Shown here: in pieces, positions 11,862 through 57,077 of the stretch
How the letters are laid out: the number at the start of each line of letters is the position of its first letter
How positions within the stretch are numbered: the first letter of the stretch is position 1
Assembly (NCBI GenBank): GCA_035994985.1
Contig: DASYKZ010000007.1
Location: 15,601-79,600, forward strand
Source of the DNA: Minisyncoccota bacterium
GTDB taxonomy: Bacteria > Patescibacteriota > Minisyncoccia > Phycocordibacterales > UBA9973
Length of the DNA: 64,000 bases
Direction of reading: 5' to 3'
Notes under the pieces: generated by a model
Told to the model about the DNA's origin: nothing
The model's input: only the letters and a program-made list of their open reading frames with translations
Database searches by the model: none
Program-made: the position numbers and the translations under genes

Positions 11862-12620
11862 TTATCTATATTTCTTGATTTTATCTTGATTAATTTCTAC
11901 GCAATCGGACGTGCTACTATCTTCCGCTGTGGTCCAGCTATCTATGCGCTCTTCTATGCTGTAAATTTTCCATTCTCCCTCTATCCTCTTGAAAGTAAAT
12001 TGATCGATATTATCACCCTCGCCTTTGCATCCGTTTCCCGCAGCACCTAGATATGATTGCCATCCTCGTCTGCCATAGACAAGCATTGTGTTTTCATCTA
12101 AGAGCTTGCGACCTAGCGCTTCTCCCCCAATACCTGCTCCGGTTGGCCACGGAAACTGAAATATCCATGCAGGGGAATTTTTATCAAAAAATGCCAGGCG
12201 AAAAGCTTCATAATGCGGACTATTCCAATCGTCAGATGGTGGTGGAACAACAAAATACGGAGCAAAAAATTCTGTAAATTCGTGCTTGCCTGACCTATCG
12301 AATATTGAGTATTCGGAAGTACTGCCATAATAGAGGGTCAGGTCATAGTATGTGGCGAGGATTACGTCAATTGCGGTATCATCTTTGGGAACAAATTTCT
12401 TAAGCTCTTCCGCTGCTTTTTGATAAGAAACATCTGCCGAATGGTCAACGGCTTGTTTCACTTTAAGATTTATCTTGCCGTCATAGGTCGAGATTTCTTT
12501 CGAGTATAAGTCTTTATACTCTCTGTCTCTTTTATTTAAGAATAAAAAAAGAGATATACCTATTAAAAGAAGTACGAGAAAAAATACTGAGATAATTTTC
12601 TTATTTTTTAAGTGTTGCAT
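11862..12620 (-). CDS. hypothetical membrane-anchored protein
   Basis: 252 aa with a single N-terminal TM (IISVFFLVLLLIGISLFLFL). Confidence 0.5.
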   Translation of the reverse strand: MQHLKNKKIISVFFLVLLLIGISLFLFLNKRDREYKDLYSKEISTYDGKINLKVKQAVDHSADVSYQKAAEELKKFVPKDDTAIDVILATYYDLTLYYGSTSEYSIFDRSGKHEFTEFFAPYFVVPPPSDDWNSPHYEAFRLAFFDKNSPAWIFQFPWPTGAGIGGEALGRKLLDENTMLVYGRRGWQSYLGAAGNGCKGEGDNIDQFTFKRIEGEWKIYSIEERIDSWTTAEDSSTSDCVEINQDKIKKYR

Positions 12621-12716
12621 TTAGTTTATTATAACACTTTCTATATAAATAAATTGATATCAATAGTTTTCACATAGCTCTAAATAACAATCACAATATA
12701 TGTTAATATTAAAAAT

Positions 12717-13826
12717 ATGAAAAAGCTAAAGGTTATATTTGATAATAACTCCCATATAGCCGGCAAAGGAAAGCCTATTTTAGAAATTTTTTCTAATAAT
12801 GTTATTAATCTTAAAAAATTTATATCCAAAAATAATATAAATGAAAGAGTTTCTAGTTGTTTTACTGAAATAATAAAAGAAGAAGGTATTAAAGAACTTC
12901 AAAGACGAGTAATCGCTAGATATCACGATGTTAAAAAATCCGCTGAAGCAATTAAAGGTATCGTTCCAGAAGATTTTATTTCTGAACTTAATGAAGGAGA
13001 ATTAAAAAATAAAATTGAAGAACAATATGATTTAAAATTAAAAGAAAATAATATAGAGATTATACCTCTACCTTCCGAAGCAAAAATATTAGAACTCTCA
13101 GAACGAGCACTTGATTATATACCTCCTTTTGAGATTGGGGATAAAGGTTTTAAGGATACTTTAATTTGGTTGTCTATTCTTGAAGATGCAGAAAAAAATA
13201 AAGACTTTGATTATATTTTTGTAACTGGAGATAAAATCTTTAATGATAGAGTCAAGAATGAGTTCAAGGCAAAACTAGGAAAAAATATTCATATAATTTT
13301 ACCAGAACTTATTGAAGAATCTTTGGATGAAGTTTTGGATTTAGGAATCGGATTAGAAAAAGCTAGAGAAGAAGCAACAAAAGCTTTGAAATTAGATGAG
13401 TCTCTCCAAAGGAAACTAGAGAAGGTTGCATTAGAAGAGCTTGCTCAACCAACCAACGCTCTTTCTCTTATCTTTTATAGTGGTGGGGAAAATAATAAAT
13501 GGGAGTCTAAGGTAGTTAATTTAATTTTCAAAGACGCAAATATAAGTATTAAAAATAAAACCTCAGCAGATACTTTTGAGATAGAGGCAACTATATCTTT
13601 TAAACCTAAATATGAAAAATCTGAAAATGAAGCGGATCAATCTCTTTACGGGGCTACAAGGTCTAATATTACAGTCATGTCTATGTATAACGGAGATAGA
13701 ATCTATTATCCAATTTCATTGAAAAAAACTTTCGACCTTACATATAAAAAAGGCAAAGGCTTTGATATTACGGGTTCTGGTAAAATGTACCCCGATTTTC
13801 CATTCACCATAAATAATTTCTACTAG
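12717..13826 (+). CDS. hypothetical protein with N-terminal PIN-like nuclease-type domain
   Basis: 'VIFDNNSH', 'GDKGFKDTLIWLSILE' and 'YIFVTGDKIFNDRV' show the spacing of conserved PIN acidic residues. AT-rich, Lys-rich; a lone + strand gene in the accessory islet. Confidence 0.45.
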   Translation: MKKLKVIFDNNSHIAGKGKPILEIFSNNVINLKKFISKNNINERVSSCFTEIIKEEGIKELQRRVIARYHDVKKSAEAIKGIVPEDFISELNEGELKNKIEEQYDLKLKENNIEIIPLPSEAKILELSERALDYIPPFEIGDKGFKDTLIWLSILEDAEKNKDFDYIFVTGDKIFNDRVKNEFKAKLGKNIHIILPELIEESLDEVLDLGIGLEKAREEATKALKLDESLQRKLEKVALEELAQPTNALSLIFYSGGENNKWESKVVNLIFKDANISIKNKTSADTFEIEATISFKPKYEKSENEADQSLYGATRSNITVMSMYNGDRIYYPISLKKTFDLTYKKGKGFDITGSGKMYPDFPFTINNFY

Positions 13827-13893
13827 ACTTAATTAAAATGCCAACACTCTAGCAAAATTAGCCAGTTTTGCTACTATTAAAATCTTCTAAAGA

Positions 13894-14565
13894 TTATATT
13901 CTCTTTTTTATCTTACGAGGGTTAGCTTTTTTATATCTACGAGCTTCTTCTTTATTGTCGGCTTCCCAAACTTTATCTCTAAATGATGATAATTGACTAG
14001 CTATTGCGTAATTTTGTCTTATAAATTTCAGTATTATACTAGGAGTAATTTTTATCTTTCTAAAATTCATCCCTAACCCTTCTCTGTTTTCTACACTTTT
14101 GTATCTCACAAAACCAGCTTCATCTAAACTCTGCCAGTTGGCATGAGCAATAATATTTCTAAACTCTGATAATTCAACAAGTTTTAAATAAATTAGCTTT
14201 ATTTCACTAAGTAACTTAGATTGCTTTTTTCCTGTTAAACAATATTTTATAAAAGCAAAATAATCATCCCTTAATAAATCAATCTTCTGTCTAAATTCTA
14301 AATATTTTATTATTCTATAACCAGGTTCATATGCTCTATCACTAATAGCAGTAGCTAAATCCACATCAACTCTGTCTTCTAATGCTGAAAAAGAAATAAC
14401 TAATCTCCCTATTGATCTAGCATATTTTTCTTCAACTTCTTCTATCACTTCGAATTCTCCATTAGTATCTTCTTCATCGTTAGTTCCATACTGACCCATA
14501 TAAGCCGCTTTAATTTCTAGTTTTATTTTTTCCTTTGGTTTTCTCATAACTGGAAATGCTTTCAA
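13894..14565 (-). CDS. hypothetical protein with HEPN-like R-x4-H motif (Abi-like)
   Basis: 223 aa; 'LSEFRNIIAHANWQ' (RNxxxH) sits in a predicted helical context. 10 nt downstream of its partner gene. Confidence 0.4.
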   Translation of the reverse strand: MKAFPVMRKPKEKIKLEIKAAYMGQYGTNDEEDTNGEFEVIEEVEEKYARSIGRLVISFSALEDRVDVDLATAISDRAYEPGYRIIKYLEFRQKIDLLRDDYFAFIKYCLTGKKQSKLLSEIKLIYLKLVELSEFRNIIAHANWQSLDEAGFVRYKSVENREGLGMNFRKIKITPSIILKFIRQNYAIASQLSSFRDKVWEADNKEEARRYKKANPRKIKKRI

Positions 14566-14575
14566 TTAAAGATAA

Positions 14576-15586
14576 TTATGACAAATTATCAAAAAGCCCC
14601 GATTGGTCATCTGGAATAATTTCTTGCTGTTTTTTTACTCTTTCTTTGTGAAAAACAATATCTTCGTTATAACTTTCTACTTCCCTAATGTAAATACTCC
14701 GATTTAACAGTATTCCACCTTTTAAATCACCAGTAATATCAAAAATTACTTTCATGTTATCGCCACTAGCAAATGTTCGTTCTCTTTTATAAGTCTGATC
14801 CTTAAAATCAGGGTCTTGCATATAAAAATCAATGTCTTCACCATTGGTTAAAATTGTTACACTTTCTGAAACTATATTTTCTCCAAAATATGTCCCCCTC
14901 CAAGATATGCCTCTGCCTTCTCTTTTCTGTTTAACTACTGGAGATATTAATTCTATAATGCCATTGGCATTTTCGTAAGAATATTTTTTGTCTAATATCG
15001 GTTCTATATATTTAGGAAAATCCTCTTTTACTATCTTTTTTGAAGAAATAATTTCCCCTTTCGAATCTTTTAAGAGAGTTTCATTATCTTTAATCATATT
15101 ATCTCTTTGCAGGGTGTCGTAAATATTGTTTTTTTTCTTTTTTAAATTTAAGTTTCCACATACCTCAGCTAATTTTTCATCAGGAATATTTTCTATATCA
15201 TAATCTCCCTTGAGTGCTTCCATATTTTGCTTTAATTCTAGGCATTTTGCTGTATCGTCTACAACCCACATATTCTTCTCGTGTAAATGCTCTTCGTGGG
15301 AATCCTTATAATTCAAAACAACAAAGACTAAACCAGCGACAGTAGCAGCAGTTCCTAGCGATACCCCTATTTTATTTTTCTTAATAAATTTTATTATATC
15401 TTTATACGATCCTGGCTCAGAAGGAAGTAAGAAAATTTCAAACTCTTCGTTTGGATATAAAACTTTTGACATTTCTTGGAGCATAGCTACCAAGTCTTCT
15501 GAACATTTATTCCGTGTATTGGCACGGATATAATGATCTGGTACTCCAAAATGGGTTTCTATGGTTATGAAATTTTCAGCTGTCAT
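14576..15586 (-). CDS. hypothetical protein with one internal TM segment; operon partner of the HEPN-like gene
   Basis: 336 aa with a TM helix GVSLGTAATVAGLVFVVL; no recognisable catalytic motif. Confidence 0.45.
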   Translation of the reverse strand: MTAENFITIETHFGVPDHYIRANTRNKCSEDLVAMLQEMSKVLYPNEEFEIFLLPSEPGSYKDIIKFIKKNKIGVSLGTAATVAGLVFVVLNYKDSHEEHLHEKNMWVVDDTAKCLELKQNMEALKGDYDIENIPDEKLAEVCGNLNLKKKKNNIYDTLQRDNMIKDNETLLKDSKGEIISSKKIVKEDFPKYIEPILDKKYSYENANGIIELISPVVKQKREGRGISWRGTYFGENIVSESVTILTNGEDIDFYMQDPDFKDQTYKRERTFASGDNMKVIFDITGDLKGGILLNRSIYIREVESYNEDIVFHKERVKKQQEIIPDDQSGLFDNLS

Positions 15587-15800
15587 AGTTATAATTATTT
15601 TCTATAATCTGAATAATTTTTTCTTGTAACAAGATTTTTAGTTGGAATCTTTTTGTTCCTATTCCTTAATTTCTACCATAAAATTTCTAGTTTTACAAGA
15701 CTAACCACGATATTTGCAAAATGAAATTGGGACTATGATAAAATGTATATAGTTGATAGAAATATTAACCAGTAGAGAGTAATGTAATAGCGCGTTCTAG

Positions 15801-15853
15801 AACCTTTTCAAGAGCGCACAACTACACTGTGCTCTACTGAAAAGGTTTTTTGT
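15801..15853 (+). terminator. strong intrinsic-terminator-like hairpin (17-18 bp stem + T-run)
   Basis: aaccttttcaagagcgcaca / tgtgctctactgaaaaggtt followed by ttttttg. A promoter-like TTGCAA (15714-15719) with a -10-like element lies ~100 nt upstream. Confidence 0.55.
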
Positions 15854-16315
15854 TATCTTGCCTCATTGTTAGGAATGAGGGTTATACTGGAGGGCTAGGC
15901 TACGTTACCAACACTGGGCCTCCTCTGGATGCGATATAAACAAGTGTTGGCTGACGAATAGCTAAGCGTCTATTATCTTAGCCAAGGGAGTCTGATTGTA
16001 AAGAGATTTATTAGCAGACATCCTTGTAGGTCAGTGTCTCATAGTGGATGTAGTCAATCGACAAGCCACAAAGGGAAAAAGGAGTACATGTATGTGCTAG
16101 AAAGTCCGTTTTGACGGACACATACAGAGACAGATTCAATCAGGAGTAATTCCCTGAAAAAGCTAGATTGATAAATCACTTCCGAGAGAAAACGGAATCA
16201 CGTGATGATACTGACAAGTAGGAAACGAACGTTATCTTTGATATGGTCAAAATATTTAATAAAAACACGCTTAACCTTTCAACAGGAGTTCCCAGTATAG
16301 GAGTATCAAGATGAA

Positions 16316-21853: not shown

Positions 21854-22104
21854 GGGACCATGAATTTATGCAGGCCCCCAGCATCGCGAATTGTTTCATC
21901 GCCAGGCTGTAAATATAAATGGTATGTATTTGCTAATATTACTTCCGCGCCAAGCTCACTTACCTGTTCGGGTGTTAAAGCCTTTACAGTTGCTTTCGTG
22001 CCGACAGGCACGAAAGCGGGAGTATATATAACTCCGTAAGGAGTTTCAAGTACTCCTGCCCTACCTAAGCTATTTTGTAATTTTTTTTCAATTTTGAAGT
22101 CCAT
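21850..22104 (-). CDS. tgt: queuine tRNA-ribosyltransferase, N-terminal fragment (84 aa), ending in an ATGA stop/start overlap with the C-terminal piece
   Basis: 'GRAGVLETPYGVIYTPAFVPVGTKATVKALTPEQ…ANTYHLYLQPG…GGLHKFMVP*'. The next conserved TGT segment (ITDSGGFQ) continues in the -1 frame. Confidence 0.7.
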   Translation of the reverse strand: MDFKIEKKLQNSLGRAGVLETPYGVIYTPAFVPVGTKATVKALTPEQVSELGAEVILANTYHLYLQPGDETIRDAGGLHKFMVP

Positions 22105-22178
22105 TTTATAAATGTGGATAACTTTGACTTTTATATCAAAATTTGCTATATTTAAAGTGATCGAAAGATCACAAACTT

Positions 22179-22209
22179 TACTGCTTAGGGGCTCCGCAAG
22201 GAGTCCCTT
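22179..22209. terminator. terminator-like GC hairpin (ggggctcc-gcaa-ggagtccc) with a downstream T-run on + and a second hairpin (gtgatcgaaagatcac) at 22148-22163
   Basis: Lies between the NYN gene stop and the tgt start; orientation ambiguous. Confidence 0.35.
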
Positions 22210-22221
22210 TGGCTTTTTATA

Positions 22222-22983
22222 TTATAGGGCCTTTATTTTATCCTTTATACTTTGAGATAAGTCTCTTGGCCAGCAAATAAACTCCTTAATCTTTTTAATA
22301 TCAAACACAAAGGTTCCCGTTTCATCTAATTCAGTAGAGACTTTACCGGAAGTTGCAAAAATTACTGCATTTTTCCCATCACTTCTTATCTGATTTACGG
22401 GACCCGCGAAATCACTATCTACACTCCATAATATGTAGTTATTGATTCCATCATTGTCAAAATCTCTGAGCATATCTCTACCCATTTCAACATCAAAATT
22501 ACACTTTTGTTCTTCTATCTCAAAAATTCCTTGCTTATTAAAGATCTCTAGTTTTCCATTTAGATATTCTATAGTTTCTATAGCTAGCTTTGATAAAAGA
22601 CTTTTCTTTATAAAATTTTTCAATATACTTGGAGAATTTTTAGGAATACTGGACATATCAATAGGTATCCTCATTAATTTTACTGGTTTAGTAGTAACAC
22701 TATAACCCATAGCTTCCAACTCTGGAATACAATCTTCAGATTGTTGATTACCTTCTAAGGTTCCAGTGTAAATTTTAACAGAATTTATTGTATCAAAAGA
22801 ATCAAATAACTGTTTCATTCTTTTTAAATCTATGTTCCACTTTAGTTTGTCTTGCCAATGTATGACATTAGACCAATCAATATAAATGTTTGTAGGACCA
22901 TCAAAAATTTTCTCCAAATCTGATATAACTTTGGGAAATAATTTTGCTAACTTTTCAATTCTGTCTGTTTTTGGTATAAACAT
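22222..22983 (-). CDS. NYN/LabA-like (PIN-fold) nuclease domain protein
   Basis: 'NIYIDWSNVIHW' (beta1 Asp), 'CNFDVEMGRDML' and 'YILWSVDSDFAGPVNQIRSDGKNAVIFAT' fit the NYN pattern (D…D-x-D…SGD-DF…G-x-V). Confidence 0.6.
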   Translation of the reverse strand: MFIPKTDRIEKLAKLFPKVISDLEKIFDGPTNIYIDWSNVIHWQDKLKWNIDLKRMKQLFDSFDTINSVKIYTGTLEGNQQSEDCIPELEAMGYSVTTKPVKLMRIPIDMSSIPKNSPSILKNFIKKSLLSKLAIETIEYLNGKLEIFNKQGIFEIEEQKCNFDVEMGRDMLRDFDNDGINNYILWSVDSDFAGPVNQIRSDGKNAVIFATSGKVSTELDETGTFVFDIKKIKEFICWPRDLSQSIKDKIKAL

Positions 22984-22986
22984 AAA

Positions 22987-23568
22987 TTATTCTTTCGTCT
23001 CATTAATTTCTTCTACTAAAACTTCTTCTTTGCAGTATTTTTCTGAAAACTCCTTTAATTCAGTTTTAATGTCTTTGAGTTCACCATCCATTATTGCTTC
23101 CGTAGTTTCTGGAGTTTTAGGGATAAGTAATTTCACCCTCCTAAATTCAAATGTATGGTAAGAATTATTTACATTTATATCTTCCTCATTTACTACATTA
23201 GTCTTTCCTTGATTGTTATTAAACGTTTTTACCATCTTTTTTGTACGTGTAACAATTTTTGGAGACCAGTTTGCCATTTTTGCTGCATCTGACCCATACT
23301 TCTCGTATTCATTGATAACTTTTATTACTCGAGATTTATAAGTAGCCAAAGAACCGGCACTAAATTTCCCTTTTGCAAAAATGCTGTTTGAAATTTGTCC
23401 AATATTTTTCTTAACTTCATTTATAGACTTAACTTCTTCCTCATTTAATTCTTCCTCAAATAACTTCAGGGCTGTCTTAAGAGCAGACCCTGTATTTTCA
23501 GGGTATTTGCGACTCTTTACAGCCCTGTTAATAAAATCATATAAATTTTTAAAATTTTGTTTTTCCAT
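22987..23568 (-). CDS. hypothetical protein, operon partner upstream of the NYN gene (3-nt gap)
   Basis: 193 aa, K/E-rich, no recognisable motif. Confidence 0.5.
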   Translation of the reverse strand: MEKQNFKNLYDFINRAVKSRKYPENTGSALKTALKLFEEELNEEEVKSINEVKKNIGQISNSIFAKGKFSAGSLATYKSRVIKVINEYEKYGSDAAKMANWSPKIVTRTKKMVKTFNNNQGKTNVVNEEDINVNNSYHTFEFRRVKLLIPKTPETTEAIMDGELKDIKTELKEFSEKYCKEEVLVEEINETKE

Positions 23569-23837
23569 AGTTTTATTTTTATAATTACTAATGAATATAT
23601 TCTATTATAGCTCAATATAGAAGTCAAGAGTAGTTATAAATTGATGCTGTGGAAAACTTTATAATATCTTTATAAATAAGGGTATTTATGTCAGATTTGA
23701 TTTCAAGAAAATGTTCGTTAACGTTTCAATAAATTATTAATTTATTGAAAAATATCTACTCTCTCTGTAAACATCTTTTCTTTGGCTTATATTTTATAAT
23801 ATATAATAGTTATGAGCTATATGTTTAGAGGATAGTT

Positions 23838-24656
23838 TTAGTTTGCCACTTCCACAAATTTAAGTTGCTGGATATTTACCGGAGAAACAAGCAGGGCTTT
23901 CTGCGAAGAGTCGCGAGGGTCAGAAATTACCGTTTCCACTACTCCTATGACATACGGAGTAATGCCGGGCAGCACTGCCTGGTCCCCTTTCCACAACACC
24001 AAATCTCTCGGCACTATCATTTCAAAATTTCCCCCGCCCCTGCCTGCAACTTCTGTAAAAATATTGCCGGCCTGTCCCGCTTGCGGAGAAAGCACTACCT
24101 CTGTAGCTTCCCCACTATTGGAAAATAAAATTACTTTTGAAGATTTTGGGTATGCTTCGGCTATCCGGCCAATGGGTAGATTGCCAAAAGCAAACACTCT
24201 GTCGCCCATTTTTATCCCTTTGTCTACTCCGATGTCAATCAATAAAGTATCGTAAGGGCTTTGGTTTGGCTTTGCCAATATCGCGCCCAATGTCATTTTT
24301 ACCTGCTCATTCTTGCGGCCTAAAATTTCCTTCAGGCCCGCATTCTCTGCTACGACAGAAGCATAATTTGCCCTGTCGGCGCTGTCGGCATCCCTCTCAG
24401 ATTTCAAGTCAGCATTTTCCTTAGAAAGAGAGCTTTTAAAAGAAAAGTAACTGGCGAAACTTGTGAGTTTTCTGCCGGCACCATTTCCGGAACTAAGTAC
24501 AGGACGGAAAACTGCCGTACTGACATAGCCGAGCCCGCTAAAAACTCCAGCGCGGAAATAAAATAATATGATAAAAACCAGGACGGCACCGATGATTTTT
24601 AAATTCTTGTTCCTTTTATTTTTTTTATCGAGGAGGTAATTCATTTTGATTACCAA
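23838..24656 (-). CDS. mreC: rod shape-determining protein MreC
   Basis: N-terminal TM, coiled-coil and C-terminal beta domain (…GNLPIGRIAEAY…VSPVNIQQLKFVEV). Immediately downstream of mreB with a 32-nt overlap. Confidence 0.65.
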   Translation of the reverse strand: MVIKMNYLLDKKNKRNKNLKIIGAVLVFIILFYFRAGVFSGLGYVSTAVFRPVLSSGNGAGRKLTSFASYFSFKSSLSKENADLKSERDADSADRANYASVVAENAGLKEILGRKNEQVKMTLGAILAKPNQSPYDTLLIDIGVDKGIKMGDRVFAFGNLPIGRIAEAYPKSSKVILFSNSGEATEVVLSPQAGQAGNIFTEVAGRGGGNFEMIVPRDLVLWKGDQAVLPGITPYVIGVVETVISDPRDSSQKALLVSPVNIQQLKFVEVAN

Positions 24657-47692: not shown

Positions 47693-49663
47693 ATGAACAA
47701 AAATATGAAAGTTTCTAATGGGATGAAAAATACAAATAAATTACAGGGTAGGATATCGATTTCCTCCAAAGGCACAGGGTACGTAGCGGTGGGAGAAGAT
47801 AAAAACAAGGGCGAGGACCCCGAAATAGACTTCAAGCACCTCAATACTGCCCTTCATGGAGACATGGTAGAAATATTGCTCCACCCCAAAAAGGCAGGGC
47901 AACGGCAGAGAGCTGAAATATCAAATATAGTCTCTCGCGCAAAGATGAGCTTTGCCGGCGTATTGGAAATGGAAAACAATATGCTCTTCCTCCGACCGGA
48001 CGACAATAAAATGTACACCGATATTCTGGTGCCGAAGGAAAATTTAAACAACGCAAAAGCAGGACAAAAAGTTTTTGTGGAAATAGCGTCGTGGAAAGAT
48101 GCCCGCAAAGCGCCCATCGGCCGCGTGGTTAAAATTTTAGGAAATCCCGGAGACAATGACACAGAAATGCACGCCATAGCCATAGAAAAAGGCTTTGACT
48201 CGGAGCTTCCAAAAGCCGTGGAAATTGAGGCGCAGGAAATAAAAGCGTCCGGCATCCAGGAAAAAGATTACGCGGAGCGGCGCGATTTCAGAAAAGTACT
48301 TACCTTTACCATAGACCCTTCGGACGCCAAGGATTTTGACGATGCCATATCGTTTAAGGAAATAAAGAATGCCAAAGAAACTGAGTACGAGGTAGGCATC
48401 CATATCGCCGACGTGTCGTACTATGTGCGGCCAGGAAGCGAGCTAGACCATGAAGCGAGCGCCCGCGGCACCTCGGTGTACTTGGTAGATAGGACCATAC
48501 CCATGCTGCCGGAAATTCTTTCAAATGATTTATGCAGCTTGGTGCCAAACAAAGACCGGCTAACCATGAGCGCTGTTTTCACGCTGGACAAAAATGCCAA
48601 AGTAAAAAGCGAATGGTTTGGACGCACGGTGATACATTCGCAAAAGCGGTTTACCTATGAAGAAGCCGAAGAGTCAATAAAAAATCCAAAGGCTCTTTTA
48701 CACAATGAACTTTCTGTATTAAATGAATTAGCCAAAAAATTAACCAAGGAAAGATTCAGGGAGGGCGCCATATCGCTCGACCAGGAAGAAGTAAAGTTCG
48801 TCCTCAATATGTACGGCGTGCCCATAGATATAATAAAAAAGGAACGGGGCAACTCAAACAGGCTGATTGAAGAGTTTATGCTCTTGGCTAATAAAAAAGT
48901 GGCAAAGCTAATCGGAAGCGATGTAAAAGGTTCAAAAAATAAAAACGTCTCCATATACCGCATCCACGACCTGCCAAGCAAGGAAAAAATGGCCGACTTG
49001 GCGTTTTTCCTGCGAAACTTGGGCTATAAGGTTTCGCTCGTAGATGGCATCATTCCGAGCCATGAACTAAACAAGCTGCTCGGAAGCTTGGAGGGCAAGC
49101 CGGGGGGCGACGCGGTGCAGCGAGCCGTCATAAAATCCATGGCCAAGGCAATTTATTCCACAAAGAATATTGGCCACTACGGACTCGCCTTCCCCTACTA
49201 TACCCATTTCACTTCGCCGATTAGACGCTATCCGGACATCATAGTCCACAGGTTGCTTCAAGATTTTCTGTCACACACAAAAATCAAAAAACCGCATTTA
49301 CAGGAGGAATATGAAAAGATTGCGAGAATCGCCTCCGAGCAGGAAAAGCGGGCTACAGACGCGGAGAGGTCTTCTATAAAATACAAGCAGGTAGAATATA
49401 TGAGCAAGCGCATCGGAGAAAAATTCTTTGGTGTCATCAGCGGCATCACCGAGTGGGGCCTGTATGTGGAAGAAATCGAAACAAAATGCGAGGGACTGGT
49501 GCGCATGCGCGACATGAAAGATGATTTTTATGTTTTCAATGAAAAAAAGATGGAAATAACCGGACAAAAAAAGAAGAAGAGGTACCGGCTCGGCGACCGT
49601 GTTAAAATGAAAGTGCGCGGAGTCGACCTCGAGAGAAAAACAATAGAGTATGTTTTAGTATGA
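47693..49663 (+). CDS. rnr: ribonuclease R / RNase II-family 3'-5' exoribonuclease
   Basis: N-terminal cold-shock-like domain; RNB motifs 'DPSDAKDFDDAISF', 'VYLVDRTIPMLPE', 'HYGLAFPYYTHFTSPIRRYPD'; C-terminal S1. Confidence 0.9.
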   Translation: MNKNMKVSNGMKNTNKLQGRISISSKGTGYVAVGEDKNKGEDPEIDFKHLNTALHGDMVEILLHPKKAGQRQRAEISNIVSRAKMSFAGVLEMENNMLFLRPDDNKMYTDILVPKENLNNAKAGQKVFVEIASWKDARKAPIGRVVKILGNPGDNDTEMHAIAIEKGFDSELPKAVEIEAQEIKASGIQEKDYAERRDFRKVLTFTIDPSDAKDFDDAISFKEIKNAKETEYEVGIHIADVSYYVRPGSELDHEASARGTSVYLVDRTIPMLPEILSNDLCSLVPNKDRLTMSAVFTLDKNAKVKSEWFGRTVIHSQKRFTYEEAEESIKNPKALLHNELSVLNELAKKLTKERFREGAISLDQEEVKFVLNMYGVPIDIIKKERGNSNRLIEEFMLLANKKVAKLIGSDVKGSKNKNVSIYRIHDLPSKEKMADLAFFLRNLGYKVSLVDGIIPSHELNKLLGSLEGKPGGDAVQRAVIKSMAKAIYSTKNIGHYGLAFPYYTHFTSPIRRYPDIIVHRLLQDFLSHTKIKKPHLQEEYEKIARIASEQEKRATDAERSSIKYKQVEYMSKRIGEKFFGVISGITEWGLYVEEIETKCEGLVRMRDMKDDFYVFNEKKMEITGQKKKKRYRLGDRVKMKVRGVDLERKTIEYVLV

Positions 49664-51594
49664 GCCATTTTTTGAAGACAAAGATGAAATTGACGCTATG
49701 GGTTATGCTTTCGGTATTGGCCGGAGTTTTTTTGGCTTCAAGCGCTTTAGCATTTTTAAAAAATAACCATCTGGAGCTATGGAGTAGCCAGGCTCTGGTC
49801 ATACAGCCGTTTGCCGACGACACCGTGGCCAAGCCGAAATATTTTTACACCACCAAAGATTCCGGCACCGAGCCGAAAATATCCGCAGAGGCATACATAG
49901 TCGGCGACTTGAATACCGGCGAAGTAATCATGGCCAAAAATCAAGATGCAAAGCGGCCCATAGCTTCAATGTCGAAGCTTATGACCGCCTTTGTGGCAAA
50001 TGAAGTAACCGACATAAACGACACAGCAGAAGTAAGTAGCGGGGCTGTCTCCGCTTCAGGCAGAAACGGAGGGCTGCGGGCCGGAGAGAAAATAAAAACT
50101 TCAGACTTGCTGTATCCACTTCTTCTAGAATCCAGCAACGACGCGGCGGAAGCGTTGGCGGAGCATTTTGGAAGAGACAGCTTTATTTCCAAAATGAACC
50201 AGCAAGCCCAAAATTTAAAAATGGCTTCTACAAATTTTGAAGACCCGAGCGGATTGTCTGCCGGCAACCAGTCTACTGCGTCTGATATGTTTCGGCTCGT
50301 CGGATACCTGCGAGGGCAAAAGCCAGAACTGCTCGCAATCACTACCAAGCGGAGCTTTAGCAACAAAAAACATAGCTGGTCGAATATTTCCCAGTTTCTC
50401 GGAGACGACGGATATATCGGGGGCAAAAGCGGATATACCGACGCGGCTCAGCAGACCGTAGTCTCTATGTTTGATTTGCCTCTCGGAGAGAGTGGCCTGC
50501 GCCCTATAGCTATCACCCTCCTCGGGAGCTCTGACCGACACAGAGACGTGGAAACTATTTTGAAATATTTGAAGAAAAATATTTATTACGGAGGAGAAGC
50601 GGATGCCAATACAAACTGGGTCGCCGAGAAAATCGGCGCACCGGACATCAAAGACCCGAATTTCGTGACGCTCACATTTGGAGGCGATATAATGCTCGAC
50701 CGCGGGGTAAAATCGTCGGTCATAAGAAATTTCGGCAATGATTACTCTGCCCTTTTTGAAAAGCTCGCCAAAGAAAATTCGCTTAAAAAATCCGATATAA
50801 ATTTTGCCAATCTGGAAGGTCCTGCCTCAGACCAAGGAGAGGATCAGAAAAATTTGTATGCTTTTAGGATGGACCCGGCGGTAATTCCCGCCCTTGCCGG
50901 CGCAGGAATAAATATTTTATCCGTCGCAAACAACCACGTGGCAGACTGGGGACGCCCCGCTTATGCCGACACTTTAGCCAATTTGAAAGAAAACGAAATA
51001 CTTTATACTGGCGGCGGAAACAACGCGGCCGAAGCTGAAGCGCCGACTATCATAGAAAAATATGGGATGAAAATAGGCTTTCTCGGATTTTCGGACCAAG
51101 GGCCGGATTATATGCAGGCAGAAGCCGGCCTTGCCGGAATACTCTCCGCCAAAAACCCGCGCTTTGATGAAATAATAAGCAGCGCCGCAAAACAAGTCGA
51201 TTACCTCGTAGTCTCCTTCCATTTCGGTGAAGAATACCAGGCAAAACATAACGTACGGCAAGCAGAGCTGGCACACAGAGCGGTGGACGACGGGGCCAAG
51301 CTCATCATTGGCGCGCACCCGCATGTGGTCCAAGATATGGAAGTATACGCTAGGAAAGACTGCACTCAAAGTTCGTGCATGAGCTTCATAGCCTACTCGC
51401 TTGGAAATTTTATCTTTGACCAGTCGTTTAGCGCGAGCACCATGCAGGGCATGCTGCTTAACGTAAAACTAGGCATAGATGGAACTATGACCGTGAGGAA
51501 AGACACCGTAAAACTAAACAGCGCTTTCCAGCCGGACCAAATTGTTCGCGGTAAAGAAGAAAAAGTGAAATTTCAGGAAGTTAAAGCGAATTAG
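49660..51594 (+). CDS. fusion protein: D-alanyl-D-alanine carboxypeptidase (peptidase S11, PBP5-like) N-terminal domain + CapA/PgsA-like metallophosphatase-fold C-terminal domain
   Basis: S11 motifs SMSKLMT (SxxK), ESSNDAA (SxN) and GGKSGYT (KTG-like). CapA-like 'VDYLVVSFHFGEEYQ…IIGAHPHVVQD…AYSLGNFIFDQ'. N-terminal TM/signal. Confidence 0.75.
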   Translation: MSHFLKTKMKLTLWVMLSVLAGVFLASSALAFLKNNHLELWSSQALVIQPFADDTVAKPKYFYTTKDSGTEPKISAEAYIVGDLNTGEVIMAKNQDAKRPIASMSKLMTAFVANEVTDINDTAEVSSGAVSASGRNGGLRAGEKIKTSDLLYPLLLESSNDAAEALAEHFGRDSFISKMNQQAQNLKMASTNFEDPSGLSAGNQSTASDMFRLVGYLRGQKPELLAITTKRSFSNKKHSWSNISQFLGDDGYIGGKSGYTDAAQQTVVSMFDLPLGESGLRPIAITLLGSSDRHRDVETILKYLKKNIYYGGEADANTNWVAEKIGAPDIKDPNFVTLTFGGDIMLDRGVKSSVIRNFGNDYSALFEKLAKENSLKKSDINFANLEGPASDQGEDQKNLYAFRMDPAVIPALAGAGINILSVANNHVADWGRPAYADTLANLKENEILYTGGGNNAAEAEAPTIIEKYGMKIGFLGFSDQGPDYMQAEAGLAGILSAKNPRFDEIISSAAKQVDYLVVSFHFGEEYQAKHNVRQAELAHRAVDDGAKLIIGAHPHVVQDMEVYARKDCTQSSCMSFIAYSLGNFIFDQSFSASTMQGMLLNVKLGIDGTMTVRKDTVKLNSAFQPDQIVRGKEEKVKFQEVKAN

Positions 51595-51606: not shown

Positions 51607-53775
51607 TTATTTGGCAATCTGCGTAGCTTCTTCGAATTTTACCGAGAGGAGCTTGGAGGCGCCGTCGGAGCCGACAGTAATCCCGTAGAGTACTCCGGCG
51701 CGGGACATCGTTTCCCTATTGTGGGTGACGACGACGAGCTGGGAATGCTTGGAAAGTTTTTCCAGCATATCACCGTACTTTCGGGAATTTGATTCATCAA
51801 GAGCGGCATCAGTCTCGTCCAATACCAAGAATGGGGGCGGGTTGACCTGCGACATGGCAAAAAGTATCGCTATAGAAGTGAGCGACCTCTCTCCTCCGGA
51901 GAGCGCCTGCAGCTCTTTGACCTTCTTGTGAGGCAGCGACACATTTATCTCTATCCCTTTTTCAAAGACTATTTCTTCATCTATTCCGGACTCTAGCTCC
52001 AGATCTTCATCCCTCTTTTTCCTTTTATTTTCCACCACGATAGACAAGGCCGCGTGTCCGCCGCCGAACATAAGCCGAAAGAACTCCTCGAATTCCACGT
52101 TTATTTTTTTAACGCCTTCCTTGAATTCTATATCGATTTTTTCCTTCAGGTCTTCTATGAGCTTCTCTAGGGACTCTATGCTCTTGGTCAGGTCTTCCAG
52201 CTCTTTCGCCAGAAACGCATCCCTCTGGAACACTTCTTCAAATTCTTTCATGATTTCCGCACCGCCGGAGAGACCAGCATCTTCGAGCTTTATTTTAATC
52301 CTTTCTATTTTTCGCCTTGTTTCTTCCTGCACAGTCCTGTCAGGTACGCCCTCGATAAGAACATTTTTATAGTCCAATATACCCCGCCCGATAAGTGCTG
52401 TACCTTCCTGTATCTCATTTTCAAATGCTTCTACCTCCCGATTCAAGTTTTCCTGCTTCACGGATAAAAGCTCTAAATGCGAAGTAAGCTCCTGCTGCTT
52501 AATTTTGTGGGTAAATTTCTCTCGCTCTTTGTCTCGCAGCGCTTCCATCTCTTCGTTTATTTCTGTTTTGAATTTTTCGGCGAGTTCGTTTTTTTCTTTT
52601 TCTTCCGTTTCCAGATTTTTTATTTCCGCCACAGTCTGCTCCTGTGAATCTTTCAATTCCGCGAGTTCCTTTTCCTCATTATGTATTTTCTCCATTTGCT
52701 CCGCTCCTTGTTCTTCTATGATACTGCCGCACATGGGGCAGCGGCCGGAGAGCTTTTCTTTGCTGATTCTGGATTCCAGTATTCCTTCAATGCGTCCCAG
52801 CTTCCGGTCGAGCTCGCCTTTTATTCTCCGGATTTCATTCAGCTTTTGCTCTATCGCACGCAGTTCGCCAATCTTTTTACTCTCTCCGCCTAAATCCGCA
52901 GTGTCAGATATTTTAAGATTTATATTTTTTAGTTCAGATTCTATTTTGGCTTTTTCTGCGGACAAATTCTTTTTCTCTTCGTCCAGATAGATGCTTTCTT
53001 TTTTTAGATAGTCCCTATATAAAGCGCCAAGCTCTTCCTGCATGACTTGGGCCTTTTCAAATTTTTCCACCTGCTTCCTTAAAAAATTCAAGTGCGGCGC
53101 ATTTTCACGGCGAAGCATGCCCACTTCTTTCATGTTCTCCCCGGTCCGCTCCAGCTTTCTTTCAGATTCTTTTATTTTGTATTGATAGACCTTGAGCCCG
53201 AGCGCGTCCTCCACCATTTCCCGCCTCTCCCGGGCGTTTGCATTTAAAATCCTGTCCGCTTCGCCTTGGGAAATGATATGATGCCCAGAGGAGCCGACGT
53301 TGACCGAAGACAAAAGATTGTGGATGTCTTTCAGGCGGACGTCTGTATTGTTTAAAATATATTTATTCAGGCCGTCCGGAAATACCTGTCTCGAAATACT
53401 GATGGTATCGTAGTTCAGGTCGACATTTTCTCCTGTATCATTGGTAAATTTAAAAACTTTGTCAGAATTATCGAAGTATACTGTCGCCGTGGCGCGGCTG
53501 CCTTTGGATAAATTTTTTGACCCCTTGAAAATGAGGTCTGTGCCGGAGCGTCCGCGCATGGATTTCATGGACTGCTCGCCCAAGACATACCGGAAAGCTT
53601 CCACTACGTTGGACTTGCCGGAGCCATTGGGGCCGACGATGCAAGTGATAGCGCTCCCAAACTCTAAAACGCTCTTATGAGCGAAAGATTTAAAGCCGTT
53701 TATTTCAAGTGTTTTGAGCCGCATAGTCCTTATATTACCATACTTAGTAGACTTCTTGCTGGTAACATTTTTCAC
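51607..53775 (-). CDS. smc: short SMC-family ATPase (chromosome condensation/segregation) with a CxxC zinc-hook-like motif in place of a canonical hinge; likely start is MRLKTL at 53724
   Basis: N-terminus 'MRLKTLEINGFKSFAHKSVLEFGSAITCIVGPNGSGKSNVVEAFRYVLGEQSMKSMRG'; C-terminus 'LSGGERSLTSIAILFAMSQVNPPPFLVLDETDAALDESN…VVVTHNRETM…LYGITV'; mid-molecule 'GRCPMCGS'. Only 722 aa. Confidence 0.75.
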   Translation of the reverse strand: MKNVTSKKSTKYGNIRTMRLKTLEINGFKSFAHKSVLEFGSAITCIVGPNGSGKSNVVEAFRYVLGEQSMKSMRGRSGTDLIFKGSKNLSKGSRATATVYFDNSDKVFKFTNDTGENVDLNYDTISISRQVFPDGLNKYILNNTDVRLKDIHNLLSSVNVGSSGHHIISQGEADRILNANARERREMVEDALGLKVYQYKIKESERKLERTGENMKEVGMLRRENAPHLNFLRKQVEKFEKAQVMQEELGALYRDYLKKESIYLDEEKKNLSAEKAKIESELKNINLKISDTADLGGESKKIGELRAIEQKLNEIRRIKGELDRKLGRIEGILESRISKEKLSGRCPMCGSIIEEQGAEQMEKIHNEEKELAELKDSQEQTVAEIKNLETEEKEKNELAEKFKTEINEEMEALRDKEREKFTHKIKQQELTSHLELLSVKQENLNREVEAFENEIQEGTALIGRGILDYKNVLIEGVPDRTVQEETRRKIERIKIKLEDAGLSGGAEIMKEFEEVFQRDAFLAKELEDLTKSIESLEKLIEDLKEKIDIEFKEGVKKINVEFEEFFRLMFGGGHAALSIVVENKRKKRDEDLELESGIDEEIVFEKGIEINVSLPHKKVKELQALSGGERSLTSIAILFAMSQVNPPPFLVLDETDAALDESNSRKYGDMLEKLSKHSQLVVVTHNRETMSRAGVLYGITVGSDGASKLLSVKFEEATQIAK

Positions 53776-55429
53776 AAAATACTATTTCCGGTCTTTCTGG
53801 TGCATAAGAAGTTTGGATGGACATTTTGCATTTATCACAATTCCTATTGTAAGTTTTCATTGGATTCATTTGAGCAATATGGGCACGGTCACGGGATAGT
53901 GGGCACTTTCTTGGTATAGGTAAATTAAATCTTTTCAAAAAAACTAACTCTTTTTGGATAATTTGATAATTTTTACCGCAGGTTTCGCATTTTAAAACCT
54001 CCTTAAGAATATTATCTTCTGTATCTTTTATGTGATCTGGTAATTTTATTGTTGCATCCAGATATTCTCGCGGGTCTGGGTCGCGCCAAGTAAAACCTTT
54101 AGCTAAGGCTTCCTCTTTTTTTATCGGGAAAAATTCAAACAAAGCAGATTCGTTGTAGGCCCATGAACAGAGATCGACTGGTACTTGCCCGCCGTAGCCA
54201 TGCTTTCTGCCAAGTTTGTCTATGAACGGCATTTCATTCATCTGTTTCTTTATTTTTTCTATCATTGGGAAATATTCTTCTTTAGTGTATTGCTTATTGA
54301 AAATACAATATGAAGCTTTATTTAAACCTACACATCCAAAAACATATTCACAGCTACTACAAGCAAACGTATATTCTGTTTCGTGATTACCATATCCCCA
54401 TATAGAAAACTTAACATGATTAGAGTTATTGCCAGTCCAAGTTACTTCATACATCAATTCCGAATTCTGGCCAAAATATGTATAGTCATAGCTATTTTTT
54501 ACTCCGCCCTGAATAAATAGCTGTGAGTGTTTTATATTTTCAGAATCAGAAACATAATAAACATCATTTGCATTGCGGCAATTGTACACATAATCGCCGG
54601 AAACATTATTATTGTTGCGCGTTTGAGCTGCGCGACGAGGATACTTTAGTGAAAGTTCATAAGCTTGTTTTCTAAATTTTTCTACATTATCCGGCGTACC
54701 TAATTCAAATTCTTTAATCTTACTTAAATATTCTTCCCGAGAATATTGTTGGTTAAAAATACAGTAACTTTTACTGCGGAGTGAAGTACAGCCAAAACAA
54801 TCATTGCAATTCACTAAATCTTTTGAAAAGTAGACATTGTGGCAATTTTCTAAATCCTGAGAATAAAAACACTGAAAGCAATTTCGTGCATCTACTACTT
54901 CATAACACGAGTCACAATCTGCGGAAAATGCTAAATCAAGACAGTTGGTAGTTCGTAATGCAAAGTTAGTATAGGCATTATCTTCACCGGTAATATGTCT
55001 AAAACAGAGGTATCCATTTTTTAAATAACTTACTGCGTTGCAATATTCGCTATTAGTAAGAGTCGCATAGTTGGTGTGAAGTGCCGCACGGGGTACATCT
55101 ATTAAAAGTTCTTTGTATTGCTCAAAAAATGTTCGAGTGAAATCATATTGTCTTCCATAACTTTTTGGGTCCCATTTATCGCTCCACCAAATATCTTGTC
55201 GATAAACTTTACCAGGGACATCGGGGTGGTAAAAAGTTATTATATTTTCGCCGGTAAAATCACACTTGCGTTTATATAATATTCTGTAAGAAAGCCAATT
55301 GAGCCTTCGCATAAGCCTGCACTCTGGACACCAAGTGGGTGGTGGCACTTTTATCATTTCATAAAATCCAAAATCATCTGGCTCAATCGTGAAATCTTTT
55401 TTACAATTTTGACAGATTTTGTTTTCCAT
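53744..55429 (-). CDS. Cys-rich repeat protein of unknown function with terminal zinc-ribbon-like motifs
   Basis: 561 aa. N-terminal 'CQNCKK…WCPECR'. Internal duplicated blocks 'NCNDCFGCTSLRSKSYCIFNQQYSREEY' and 'SCEYVFGCVGLNKASYCIFNKQYTKEEY'. Repeated 'NCxxxxFSxDL' units. C-terminal 'CETCGK…CDKCK…FCEKCY'. Confidence 0.6.
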   Translation of the reverse strand: MENKICQNCKKDFTIEPDDFGFYEMIKVPPPTWCPECRLMRRLNWLSYRILYKRKCDFTGENIITFYHPDVPGKVYRQDIWWSDKWDPKSYGRQYDFTRTFFEQYKELLIDVPRAALHTNYATLTNSEYCNAVSYLKNGYLCFRHITGEDNAYTNFALRTTNCLDLAFSADCDSCYEVVDARNCFQCFYSQDLENCHNVYFSKDLVNCNDCFGCTSLRSKSYCIFNQQYSREEYLSKIKEFELGTPDNVEKFRKQAYELSLKYPRRAAQTRNNNNVSGDYVYNCRNANDVYYVSDSENIKHSQLFIQGGVKNSYDYTYFGQNSELMYEVTWTGNNSNHVKFSIWGYGNHETEYTFACSSCEYVFGCVGLNKASYCIFNKQYTKEEYFPMIEKIKKQMNEMPFIDKLGRKHGYGGQVPVDLCSWAYNESALFEFFPIKKEEALAKGFTWRDPDPREYLDATIKLPDHIKDTEDNILKEVLKCETCGKNYQIIQKELVFLKRFNLPIPRKCPLSRDRAHIAQMNPMKTYNRNCDKCKMSIQTSYAPERPEIVFCEKCYQQEVY

Positions 55430-55430
55430 T

Positions 55431-56126
55431 TTAATCGAGCCAATTTTTTGCTTTTAAAGCGGCAGTCGCCGCGCTTACTTCCGCTTCCTGTTTGGACTTG
55501 CCTTTGCCCTCCGCAATCAAACTCGAGGCAAAGAAAATTCCTACGGTAAAATGCTTGTCGTGGTCGGGGCCGGATTCGCTCAAGACCTTGTATTGGGGCG
55601 TAGTCTGGAGAAATTCCTGCGCTTTTTCCTGCACCAAGCTTTTTGCGTCCCGCCACAATTTCTTTTTTACTATTTCGTCAGTTTTAGGCAGAAGATTTTC
55701 ATGCAAAAATTTGTCTACCACGGCATATCCTTGGTCCAAATACATCGCGCCGATATATGCTTCATATGTGTTGGCCAAGATATACTGCCTCGCCTTGCCG
55801 TGGTCTTTGGCTTCGCCCCGGGACAAAAGCAGATAGTCATTCATCCCGGCCTTGAGGGCAACATCGGAAATGATGATGGCGTTCACGAGGGCGGAGCGGA
55901 CTGCCGTCAATTCCCCTTCGGTATAGCCCGGATATTTTTTATATAGAAAATCCGTAACGATGAGTTCAAGCACGGCATCGCCCAAAAATTCCAAACGCTC
56001 GTTGTGCGAAAGCCCCGTGCTTCCGTTTTCATTTATATACGAACGGTGGATAAACGCCTGCTTGAGCAAATTTTTATCCTTAAAAAATATTTTTGTTTTT
56101 TCTTCAAAACCTGAAAAGTTAATCAT
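55431..56126 (-). CDS. rnc: ribonuclease III
   Basis: Catalytic signature 'ERLEFLGDAVLELIVTDFLY'; C-terminal dsRBD. Confidence 0.9.
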   Translation of the reverse strand: MINFSGFEEKTKIFFKDKNLLKQAFIHRSYINENGSTGLSHNERLEFLGDAVLELIVTDFLYKKYPGYTEGELTAVRSALVNAIIISDVALKAGMNDYLLLSRGEAKDHGKARQYILANTYEAYIGAMYLDQGYAVVDKFLHENLLPKTDEIVKKKLWRDAKSLVQEKAQEFLQTTPQYKVLSESGPDHDKHFTVGIFFASSLIAEGKGKSKQEAEVSAATAALKAKNWLD

Positions 56127-56147: not shown

Positions 56148-57077
56148 TTATTTCTCTTCCGAACTAATAATCTGTATCGCTTTTTCGATAATCGGGAGCA
56201 TGTCGCTGTAAATGCGAAGTTCGGCTATGTTTGAGAGGGGAAACCATCTCGCGCCGTCTAGACCGCCGGATTTCTCCAGTTCTAGCTCTTTGTATTTGCT
56301 TTTACCCAGAAAATACACCACCTTCTTCAAAGTCTTTCCCGTGGTCGGGTGGGTGGCCACATATTCATTTTCTCCCAATTTTTCTAATAGTTCGATATCC
56401 AAGCCTATTTCTTTTTTGATGGCCCGCTTTGTGCCTTCTTCCAAAGTTTCACTCGTGTCAATTTTTCCCTTGGAAAGAGTCCAGTAGCCGAAAACATCGT
56501 GAACAAAAGCAAACAAAATATCTTCGCCTTGTTTTGCATACACCAAAGCGCCGCCCAGTTTTTCCACTTCAAGCTTGGTTATATCTACGGGCTCTTCAGA
56601 TTTTTTATTCACCTTACTTTTTTGCTCTTTGCCCGGCTCGCCTATCTCCTTGTATACCGCACCGAGTACCCCGTTTACAAACTTGCTGGAATTTTCTCCG
56701 CCGAAAGTTTTCGCCAGTTCTATCGCTTCGTTGATAGCCACCTTTGGAGGCACCTGAGCCCTGTCGCCAAACAGAAGCTCGTACAGCCCGAGCCGGAGGA
56801 TATTCCTATCAACGATAGATATCTTGTCGATAGGCCAGTCCGGCGCAGCTTTTTCTATAATCTCATCAATAACAAAGCGGTTTTTCAATATTTCACTTAT
56901 AAGAGAAAAGACAAAGTTGTCATCTTCCAGCCCCGGAGCGAATTCCTTTAAATTCCTCTTTGCCGCTTCTTTTATATATTCAAGTATAGTGCTTTCGTTC
57001 TTTTTTTCATCAGAAAGAAAATCCCACTCAAAAAGAGTTTGGAGTACTATTGATCTTGAGAGGTGCCTATTTGCCAT
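56148..57077 (-). CDS. nusB: fusion: transcription antitermination factor NusB domain + C-terminal NUDIX hydrolase domain
   Basis: NusB-like 'RHLSRSIVLQTLFEWDF…RNILRLGLYELLF…KFVNGVLGAVYK'. Nudix-box-like 'GKIDTSETLEEGTKRAIKKEIGL' after 'GGALVYAKQGEDILFAFVH'. Confidence 0.7.
   Translation of the reverse strand: MANRHLSRSIVLQTLFEWDFLSDEKKNESTILEYIKEAAKRNLKEFAPGLEDDNFVFSLISEILKNRFVIDEIIEKAAPDWPIDKISIVDRNILRLGLYELLFGDRAQVPPKVAINEAIELAKTFGGENSSKFVNGVLGAVYKEIGEPGKEQKSKVNKKSEEPVDITKLEVEKLGGALVYAKQGEDILFAFVHDVFGYWTLSKGKIDTSETLEEGTKRAIKKEIGLDIELLEKLGENEYVATHPTTGKTLKKVVYFLGKSKYKELELEKSGGLDGARWFPLSNIAELRIYSDMLPIIEKAIQIISSEEK

Follow-up and report, generated by a model that had tools for sequence, protein, structure and literature searches.

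What joins the two subunits of a bacterial condensin when the Smc protein lacks a hinge? The question is raised by a gene in a 64,000-nucleotide stretch of contig DASYKZ010000007.1 (the window, meaning the stretch at its full length), which derives from a Patescibacteria/Nomurabacteria-type bacterium of the candidate phyla radiation (CPR). The gene encodes an Smc of 705 residues with a CPMC motif halfway along the molecule. The reading preferred here, and regarded as probable, is that the protein is an Smc condensin dimerized through a zinc hook, from which the hinge and about half of each arm are absent. The original prediction, made from the letters alone, had left the choice between a reduced condensin and a Rad50-SMC hybrid; the best reading is a reduced condensin that carries a Rad50-type hook module.

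The smc gene and its product

The open reading frame (ORF) extends over 51607..53775 of the reverse strand and gives 722 residues when read from an upstream GTG at 53775. The starts of homologues and a database gene call that is 100% identical over 705 residues (P0001) place the initiation codon at 53724, an ATG with AAGGA upstream, and the window protein begins MRLKTLE. The short SMC of approximately 705–722 residues described in the original prediction is thus a real ORF, the two lengths corresponding to the two starts, and the estimate of about 60% of canonical length agrees with 705 residues against the 1181 positions of the TIGR02168 (SMC_prok_B) model. All the motif strings that it quoted (GFKSF, GPNGSGKSN, LGEQS, LSGGE, LDE, THN, LYG and GRCPMCGS) are present. 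The 705-residue protein contains just three cysteines: C28 in the head, C329 and C332. The gene and its ATPase head comprise the following features.

51607..53724, reverse strand: smc gene, short hinge-less Smc with a putative zinc hook, 705 residues; stop codon at 51607-51609
53230..53724, reverse strand: N-terminal ATPase head half, residues 1-165, placed by motifs and by matches to Smc head structures in the PDB
53611-53634, reverse strand: Walker A GPNGSGKS, residues 31-38
N-terminal head half, reverse strand: Q-loop GEQS, residues 49-52, and arginine R57
51610..52089, reverse strand: C-terminal ATPase head half, residues 546-705, which also holds the D-loop and the H-loop THN
51889-51903, reverse strand: signature LSGGE, residues 608-612
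51814-51831, reverse strand: Walker B FLVLDE, residues 632-637

The set of SMC-type ABC head motifs (Walker A, Q-loop, signature, Walker B, D-loop and H-loop) is complete and each lies at its expected position. Pfam SMC_N matches residues 3-690 (2e-54), and the best NCBIfam match is TIGR02168 with 493.2 bits, followed at a distance by Rad50 models (at most 61 bits, against equivalog cutoffs of 700–1087), SMC-related proteins specific to archaea (ASRPs; 58), RecF (47) and RecN (42). Structure databases give the same answer. A sequence search of the PDB returns the Smc heads of Bacillus subtilis and Geobacillus at 1e-78 versus 1e-11 for Rad50. In a Foldseek search with an AlphaFold2 model, the Smc head and joint 5XEI ranks at the top (2e-20), the first Rad50 structure is found at rank 15, and the matches show the head halves to be approximately 35–37% identical to those of B. 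subtilis Smc. The SMC-type heads that the original prediction called unmistakable are therefore well supported.

Gene order was compared in 80 species-representative genomes of Ca. Nomurabacteria/Paceibacterota. The order gyrB-thrS-nusB/Nudix-rnc-smc-PGA_cap-rnr is kept in nearly all of them, and the 80 best loci include one smc locus per assembly. The adjacency of rnc and smc is the classic arrangement, as in B. subtilis. Taken together, the Smc scores and the conserved rnc-smc synteny identify the window gene as the orthologous Smc of its host. Assignment to a Rad50/SbcC orthologue, an ASRP or a defence SMC-like protein was rejected on scores and gene context. The short hinge-less architecture accounts for the bare label 'AAA family ATPase' that annotation pipelines give these proteins.

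The arms were laid out on an AlphaFold2 monomer built from a 64-sequence alignment (mean predicted local distance difference test score, pLDDT, 68). As the arms are well predicted and the heads and hook poorly, the model was used for secondary-structure layout alone.

52765..53229, reverse strand: N-terminal coiled-coil strand, residues 166-320, from AlphaFold2 and conservation; break at residues 275-282
52090..52704, reverse strand: C-terminal coiled-coil strand, residues 341-545; breaks at about 446, 455-462 and 484-487
52705-52764, reverse strand: 20-residue loop SKEKLSGRCPMCGSIIEEQG, residues 321-340, containing CPMC (AlphaFold2)
residues 178-274: helix (AlphaFold2)
residues 283-320: helix (AlphaFold2)
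residues 341-445: helix (AlphaFold2)
residues 447-454: helix (AlphaFold2)
residues 463-483: helix (AlphaFold2)
residues 488-553: helix (AlphaFold2)

The two long arm helices of the model measure approximately 145 and 210 residues, spanning 178-320 and 341-553, and from about residue 475 the C-terminal strand can be aligned with the joint and neck of B. subtilis Smc. In 112 homologues, 175–184 residues separate QGEAD from the first cysteine and 217–233 residues separate the second cysteine from FGGG. Judged by these spacings, arm length is tightly conserved at about half the canonical value (∼340 residues, ∼47–50 nm). Between the arms there is no globular domain in the model, just the loop 321-340, and Pfam finds no SMC_hinge (PF06470) in the window protein: the hinge that the original prediction did not see in the middle of the molecule is indeed absent, and the model shows a loop in place of a canonical hinge fold.

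Conservation is unevenly distributed along the protein. The best-conserved regions are the neck and joint (166-220 and about 475-545; the neck is highly conserved over 166-223) and the C-terminal cap (626-705). Identity across the family amounts to 85–92% in segments 166-220 and 626-705 and to 40–65% in the distal arms. The neck, joint and cap can be aligned with structures of B. subtilis Smc determined together with ScpA, and their conservation is consistent with kleisin binding.

Two apex forms and their distribution

The apex of the coiled coil contains the putative hook and, around it, a segment whose phylogeny follows the type of apex.

52729-52740, reverse strand: CPMC, putative zinc-hook cysteines, residues 329-332, from conservation, PDB match and the AlphaFold2 loop
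52558..52779, reverse strand: apex cassette, residues 316-389, after RKLGRIEG and before NEEMEAL; its phylogeny tracks apex type

Several lines of evidence point to a zinc hook. In the 64-sequence alignment G327, C329, P330, C332 and G333 are invariant, a mid-molecule CP[LTMV]C is found in 120/120 of the closest database proteins, and G-[RK]-C-P-x-C-G occurs in 53 of the 80 closest species genomes. When 100 residues of the apex were used as a query, the top PDB matches were the zinc hook of Pyrococcus furiosus Rad50, 1L8D (E 6e-6), and then 6ZFF; the alignment to 1L8D covers G(R/K)CP(M/V)CG plus the preceding helix. A profile of 29 apex fragments recovered the same top PDB matches (4.9e-5). 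The resemblance of GRCPMCGS to the hook of Rad50/SbcC, proposed in the original prediction, is thus borne out through the CPxCG core. Rad50_zn_hook (PF04423) is also the most-matched Pfam family, with hits to 18 of the 29 apex fragments, the best being P0158 at E 0.0011 and 14.4 bits; the apex fragment of the window protein itself gave no match to this family at E≤1. By this pattern of conservation, the CxxC at the apex is not a chance occurrence. Neither the 64-sequence alignment nor the cysteine count reveals a further conserved cysteine or histidine nearby, so that a tetrahedral site would have to be shared by two chains, on the principle of the Rad50 hook.

The picture changes when more distant relatives are considered. 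A search of 1.84 billion cluster representatives was carried out and the best 150 matches were taken, each representing a cluster at 50% identity and sharing 40–68% identity with the query. Nearly all are 684–782 residues long; four, of 524–606 residues, match part of the query. None of ten relatives tested contains an SMC_hinge, even at E≤1. A mid-molecule CxxC is present in just six of the 150, as CPVCGQ (in a Vogelbacteria protein), CRYCGQ, CRTC, CAACGQ, CIYC and CGYC, and the five of these variants that were aligned share their alignment columns with the CPMC of the window protein. The motif is missing from the other 144, and the majority form among these representatives is one with a helical tip: in the aligned examples, as in 27 species proteins, the tip is a cysteine-free insert that makes the apex approximately 45–50 residues longer. 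In an AlphaFold2 model of tip-type P0121 (pLDDT 83.5), two short helices, 338-355 and 360-375, lie between the arms. A degenerate hinge was considered for this apex and found no support, as there is no SMC_hinge signal, the model shows two short helices, and a profile of the cysteine-free apex matches generic helical bundles.

The 80 nearest species genomes divide into 53 of the hook type (706–735 residues) and 27 of the tip type (741–759 residues), and both types of smc lie at the same syntenic locus (tip-type examples are L074, 10001-12250, and L057, 10001-12238). The two are not paralogues within one genome: the 80 best loci come from 80 different assemblies. Conservation of the two cysteines, which had been named as a check on the original prediction, is therefore a divided result: the pair is invariant in hook-type orthologues, and 27 of the 80 species and 144 of the 150 cluster representatives lack it. 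On this comparison the clade has two interchangeable modules for the apex, and the hook, as one of them, is not universal in it. A separate observation concerns L078 (JAMPXW010000001.1), whose 277-kb sequence is filed in the public record under 'Burkholderiales bacterium'. This contig contains the gyrB-thrS-nusB-rnc-smc block typical of Nomurabacteria, its short Smc being of the tip type, and is probably CPR sequence that was mis-binned or mislabelled.

The two forms are intermixed on trees of the heads and of the neighbouring genes. A neighbour-joining tree of the heads requires 14 Fitch changes between hook and tip for 81 taxa. The same number is required by a tree of rnc, nusB, rnr and gyrB (1,853 columns, 70 taxa), on which shuffled labels gave a mean of 21 changes and a minimum of 16. 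Within Smc only two segments track apex type, residues 271-318 (nine changes) and 346-400 (two changes); all other segments need 13–18 changes, and their identity within a type equals that between types. The trees and change counts were derived from short segments and simple distances, and the per-segment counts are noisy; exchange is argued chiefly from the 1,853-column tree together with individual close pairs.

The clearest pair is L046, a hook type, and L074, a tip type. Their neighbour proteins are 92.9% identical and their Smc proteins 88.5% identical outside the apex region, as against 53% in the arm segments flanking the apex; similarity stops sharply after RKLGRIEG and returns at NKEMEAL. 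The window gene itself presents an analogous case. Its nearest relative by neighbour genes, L057, is of the tip type, as are its nearest relatives by head identity, L057, L035 and L047 (87–88% in the N-terminal head half). Since the cassette alone tracks apex type, repeated recombinational swapping is suggested: the data point to cassettes of approximately 75–120 residues, homologous within each type, that have repeatedly moved between lineages or been sorted from an old polymorphism. The remainder of the gene and of the genome follows, on these trees, the species relationships.

Partners, mechanism and rival explanations

A condensin of this kind would be expected to work with a kleisin, and the partners were searched for in the vicinity of the gene. 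Pfam found no ScpA (PF02616), ScpB (PF04079), SbcD or Mre11 domain in the 23 window ORFs scanned, and none is annotated in the flanks beyond both ends of the window; the statement in the original prediction that scpA, scpB and sbcD are not adjacent therefore stands. The conserved smc neighbourhood of relatives likewise contains no Mre11 or SbcD. A phmmer search of low sensitivity with B. subtilis ScpA and ScpB recovered neither protein among 4,123 ORFs in 1.6 Mb of related loci. The scans for ScpA and ScpB covered approximately 10% of a genome, the relatives' loci being the same syntenic region. In bacteria scpAB is usually unlinked to smc, so that its absence from such a fraction of the genome is uninformative.

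The mechanism proposed for the hook-type protein can be set out as follows. The two arm helices of each protomer would pack antiparallel into an arm of approximately 21–24 nm. Two protomers would each supply C329 and C332 to a single tetrahedral Zn2+, and this bridge would, as in Rad50, keep the two constitutively dimerized at the apex. ATP would engage the heads at the opposite end, ScpA kleisin and ScpB would close the dimer into a small ring, and the ring would then load on chromosomal DNA and extrude it. Such an architecture is functionally plausible, as the engineered B. subtilis proteins Smc(Zh) and mini-Smc support growth.

Five observations weigh against a zinc-hook condensin. The TIGR02168 score lies below the curated equivalog cutoff of 567.35 bits, because only model positions of about 1–425 and the C-terminal part are matched and the middle is missing. 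Every match to Rad50_zn_hook falls under the gathering score of 24.3 bits. AlphaFold2 confidence is low at the hook (pLDDT ∼47) and in the heads. ScpA and ScpB were found neither in the window and its flanks nor in the 1.6 Mb of the relatives' smc neighbourhoods. Finally, most related short SMCs function without a CxxC, and the hook is therefore not essential to SMC function in the clade.

This last point, together with the poorly predicted loop and the sub-threshold Pfam matches, is also what favours an explanation in which the CxxC only stabilizes the hairpin turn of the arm, either as a disulfide or as a metal knuckle whose further ligands are water or acidic groups, and the dimer forms through the heads and kleisin or through the tips of the coiled coils. 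Sister orthologues with the same arms and heads and a cysteine-free apex demonstrate that the clade can work without a hook. Against a mere turn, G-[RK]-C-P-x-C-G-x-E-[IL] mirrors the P. furiosus Rad50 hook, KGKCPVCGRELT, whose structure is the top PDB match, and both cysteines are invariant in hook-type proteins that are otherwise almost free of cysteine. Two ligands per chain and no other conserved ligand in cis are the hallmark of an interchain site. Moreover, the cysteine-free apex is longer and has a two-helix element, as expected if it replaces a lost dimer contact. On balance this explanation is judged unlikely. Somewhat less credence still is given to a protein that bridges or compacts DNA independently of a kleisin, as do the archaeal ASRP ClsN or RecN, and forms no Smc-ScpAB ring. 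ASRPs are reported to have the same short arms and zinc hook and to lack a hinge (PMC9389158), the ASRP model NF045487 gives a weak match over nearly the full length, and ScpA and ScpB did not appear in the sequences searched. With 58 bits, however, the ASRP match lies below its cutoff of 300, with SMC_prok_B at 493, and the canonical rnc-smc position fits Smc. The best-conserved parts of the protein are the cap and the neck and joint, the latter being the site of the kleisin N-terminus in B. subtilis Smc (3ZGX), and both align to the head and joint structures of that Smc; the failure to see scpAB carries little weight for the reason given above.

Two further explanations were weighed. A Rad50/SbcC-type ATPase of double-strand-break repair, or a recent Rad50-SMC fusion, would account for a CxxC hook at the apex of a coiled coil, for the weak Rad50 matches in NCBIfam, and for a length close to that of some archaeal Rad50s. 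It is very improbable given the scores and structural ranks reported above, the lack of an adjacent Mre11 or SbcD, a housekeeping rnc-smc locus shared with hook-less orthologues, and the restriction of the difference between hook and non-hook forms to a 75-residue cassette. Scarcely credible is a role in defence against phages or plasmids, as the SMC-like component of a system such as Lamassu (LmuB) or Wadjet (JetC). Hooks are known in some defence SMC-like proteins and PADLOC reports matches to mad3 (193 bits) and LmuB (104 bits), but these scores are far under that of SMC_prok_B and concern generic head regions only, LmuA/LmuC or JetABD neighbours are absent, and the position in a housekeeping operon is invariant in 80 species with one copy per genome, a distribution that is neither patchy nor island-like.

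Neighbouring genes, known systems and significance

Two genes lie immediately upstream of smc in the window.

55431..56126, reverse strand: rnc (RNase III), the conserved upstream neighbour, which abuts smc in almost all related genomes
53744..55429, reverse strand: cysteine-rich ORF of 561 residues between rnc and smc, found at this site in 3-4 of 81 related loci

On the 587-kb contig of one relative, rnc lies directly next to smc. The 561-residue ORF contains many CxxC pairs, with zinc-ribbon-like ends and a repetitive cysteine-containing middle, and has no match in Pfam, NCBIfam or PADLOC. Homologues with 41–57% identity occur at the same site in two loci, L042 and L083; in L030 one lies at a contig end, and the metagenome contig L086 terminates inside another. 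A role as a novel partner or kleisin substitute was considered and rejected: the ORF has no family match and is limited at this site to the window, L042, L083 and probably L030, which include both apex types. It looks like a sporadic insertion.

Other observations were made in the window. Upstream of rnc, a NusB-Nudix fusion of 309 residues (56148-57077, reverse strand) keeps its position in essentially all 80 genomes. On the other side of smc, an ORF of 644 residues (49660-51594, forward strand) fuses a D-Ala-D-Ala carboxypeptidase (Peptidase_S11) to a CapA-like PGA_cap domain; some relatives, L001 for example, have only the PGA_cap half, of approximately 349 residues, in its place. Two islands of low guanine-plus-cytosine content (0.31–0.32 versus ∼0.42 elsewhere), at about 12000-16000 and at 22000-24000, encode PIN_12- and NYN-domain proteins together with several ORFs lacking a family match, and may be mobile or defence islands. 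Two large ORFs on the reverse strand, 4379-7450 (1023 residues) and 8262-11777 (1171 residues, annotated with Transglut_core), start with N-terminal segments resembling signal peptides or transmembrane helices; both probably encode proteins that are secreted or displayed on the surface, as is typical of episymbiotic CPR bacteria.

The window protein shares features with several known systems and coincides with none. With bacterial Smc (TIGR02168; B. subtilis, PDB 5XG3/3ZGX/5H66) it has in common the ABC head motifs, an alignable neck and joint, the rnc-smc order and a single copy. It differs in its arms of approximately 145–210 residues as opposed to ∼340, in its total of 705 residues as opposed to ∼1186, in the CxxC loop that takes the place of the hinge at its apex, and in a TIGR02168 score of 493 against a cutoff of 567. 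With the Rad50/SbcC hook (PF04423; 1L8D, 6ZFF) it shares a CPxCG placed where an antiparallel coiled coil turns back, with two cysteines per chain; the rest of the protein is Smc, Mre11 and SbcD are not nearby, and the Pfam hook match is sub-threshold. The hook may have been captured from a Rad50/SbcC gene or may be convergent, as a motif of approximately ten residues fits either origin.

The closest parallel in design is an engineered one. B. subtilis grew normally when the hinge of its Smc was replaced by the P. furiosus Rad50 hook, and versions with the hook on shortened arms were functional within defined ranges of length (Burmann et al. 2017, PMC5344682); the interchange of Rad50 hook and SMC hinge has likewise been described as an engineered one (PMC6969161). 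Smc(Zh) and Mini-Smc resemble the window protein in combining Smc heads and shortened arms with a Rad50-type hook for a hinge, whereas the window gene is natural and the design is fixed in many species. Natural Smc arms show length modes of 238, 341 and 515 residues and a minor mode of 163 (PMC5344682), and those of the window protein are shorter than the main modes. [quoted passage not shown] The likeness extends to the SMC-superfamily head, but ASRPs form a separate archaeal family that coexists with canonical SMC or replaces it, whereas the window protein has a bacterial host and a bacterial smc locus and falls far below the cutoff for NF045487. 'Hinge-less' SMC variants lacking a CXXC, which branch with Actinobacteria, were reported from ocean metagenomes (Sussfeld et al. 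2025, PMC12153180). [quoted passage not shown] In the literature covered, which was incomplete so that an earlier description is possible, there was no natural zinc-hook bacterial Smc orthologue, no hinge-less Smc from CPR bacteria and no swapping of apex modules.

A broader proposal can be put forward tentatively, with confidence falling a little short of even. Throughout a large lineage of CPR bacteria, Paceibacteria/Minisyncoccia with at least 150 clusters at 50% identity, the chromosome would be run by a hinge-less Smc of half length, and Nomurabacteria would keep two structurally unrelated dimerization cassettes that are repeatedly exchanged by recombination between close species. If this is true, the family constitutes a natural, trans-species 'hinge-swap experiment', and the exchange is a case of modular recombination within an essential chromosome-maintenance gene. 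The choice of apex module may itself be under selection, for example by zinc availability, by avoidance of heterodimers after gene transfer, or by antagonists.

Whether the hinge has a role beyond dimerization, as a DNA entry gate, in DNA binding or in communication between hinge and heads, is a long-standing question in the field of loop extrusion. The main direct evidence that the hinge fold is dispensable has so far come from a B. subtilis chimera engineered to carry a Rad50 hook; in the present case the hook-for-hinge design would occur in nature, in the orthologous smc of many species. Minimal natural Smc proteins of approximately 700 residues should suit structural and single-molecule work, and matched natural pairs such as L046 and L074, which differ essentially in an apex cassette of 75–120 residues, could be used to test the contribution of the apex. 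If the proposal is correct, condensin function would require neither the fold of the SMC hinge nor the DNA-binding surfaces on it.

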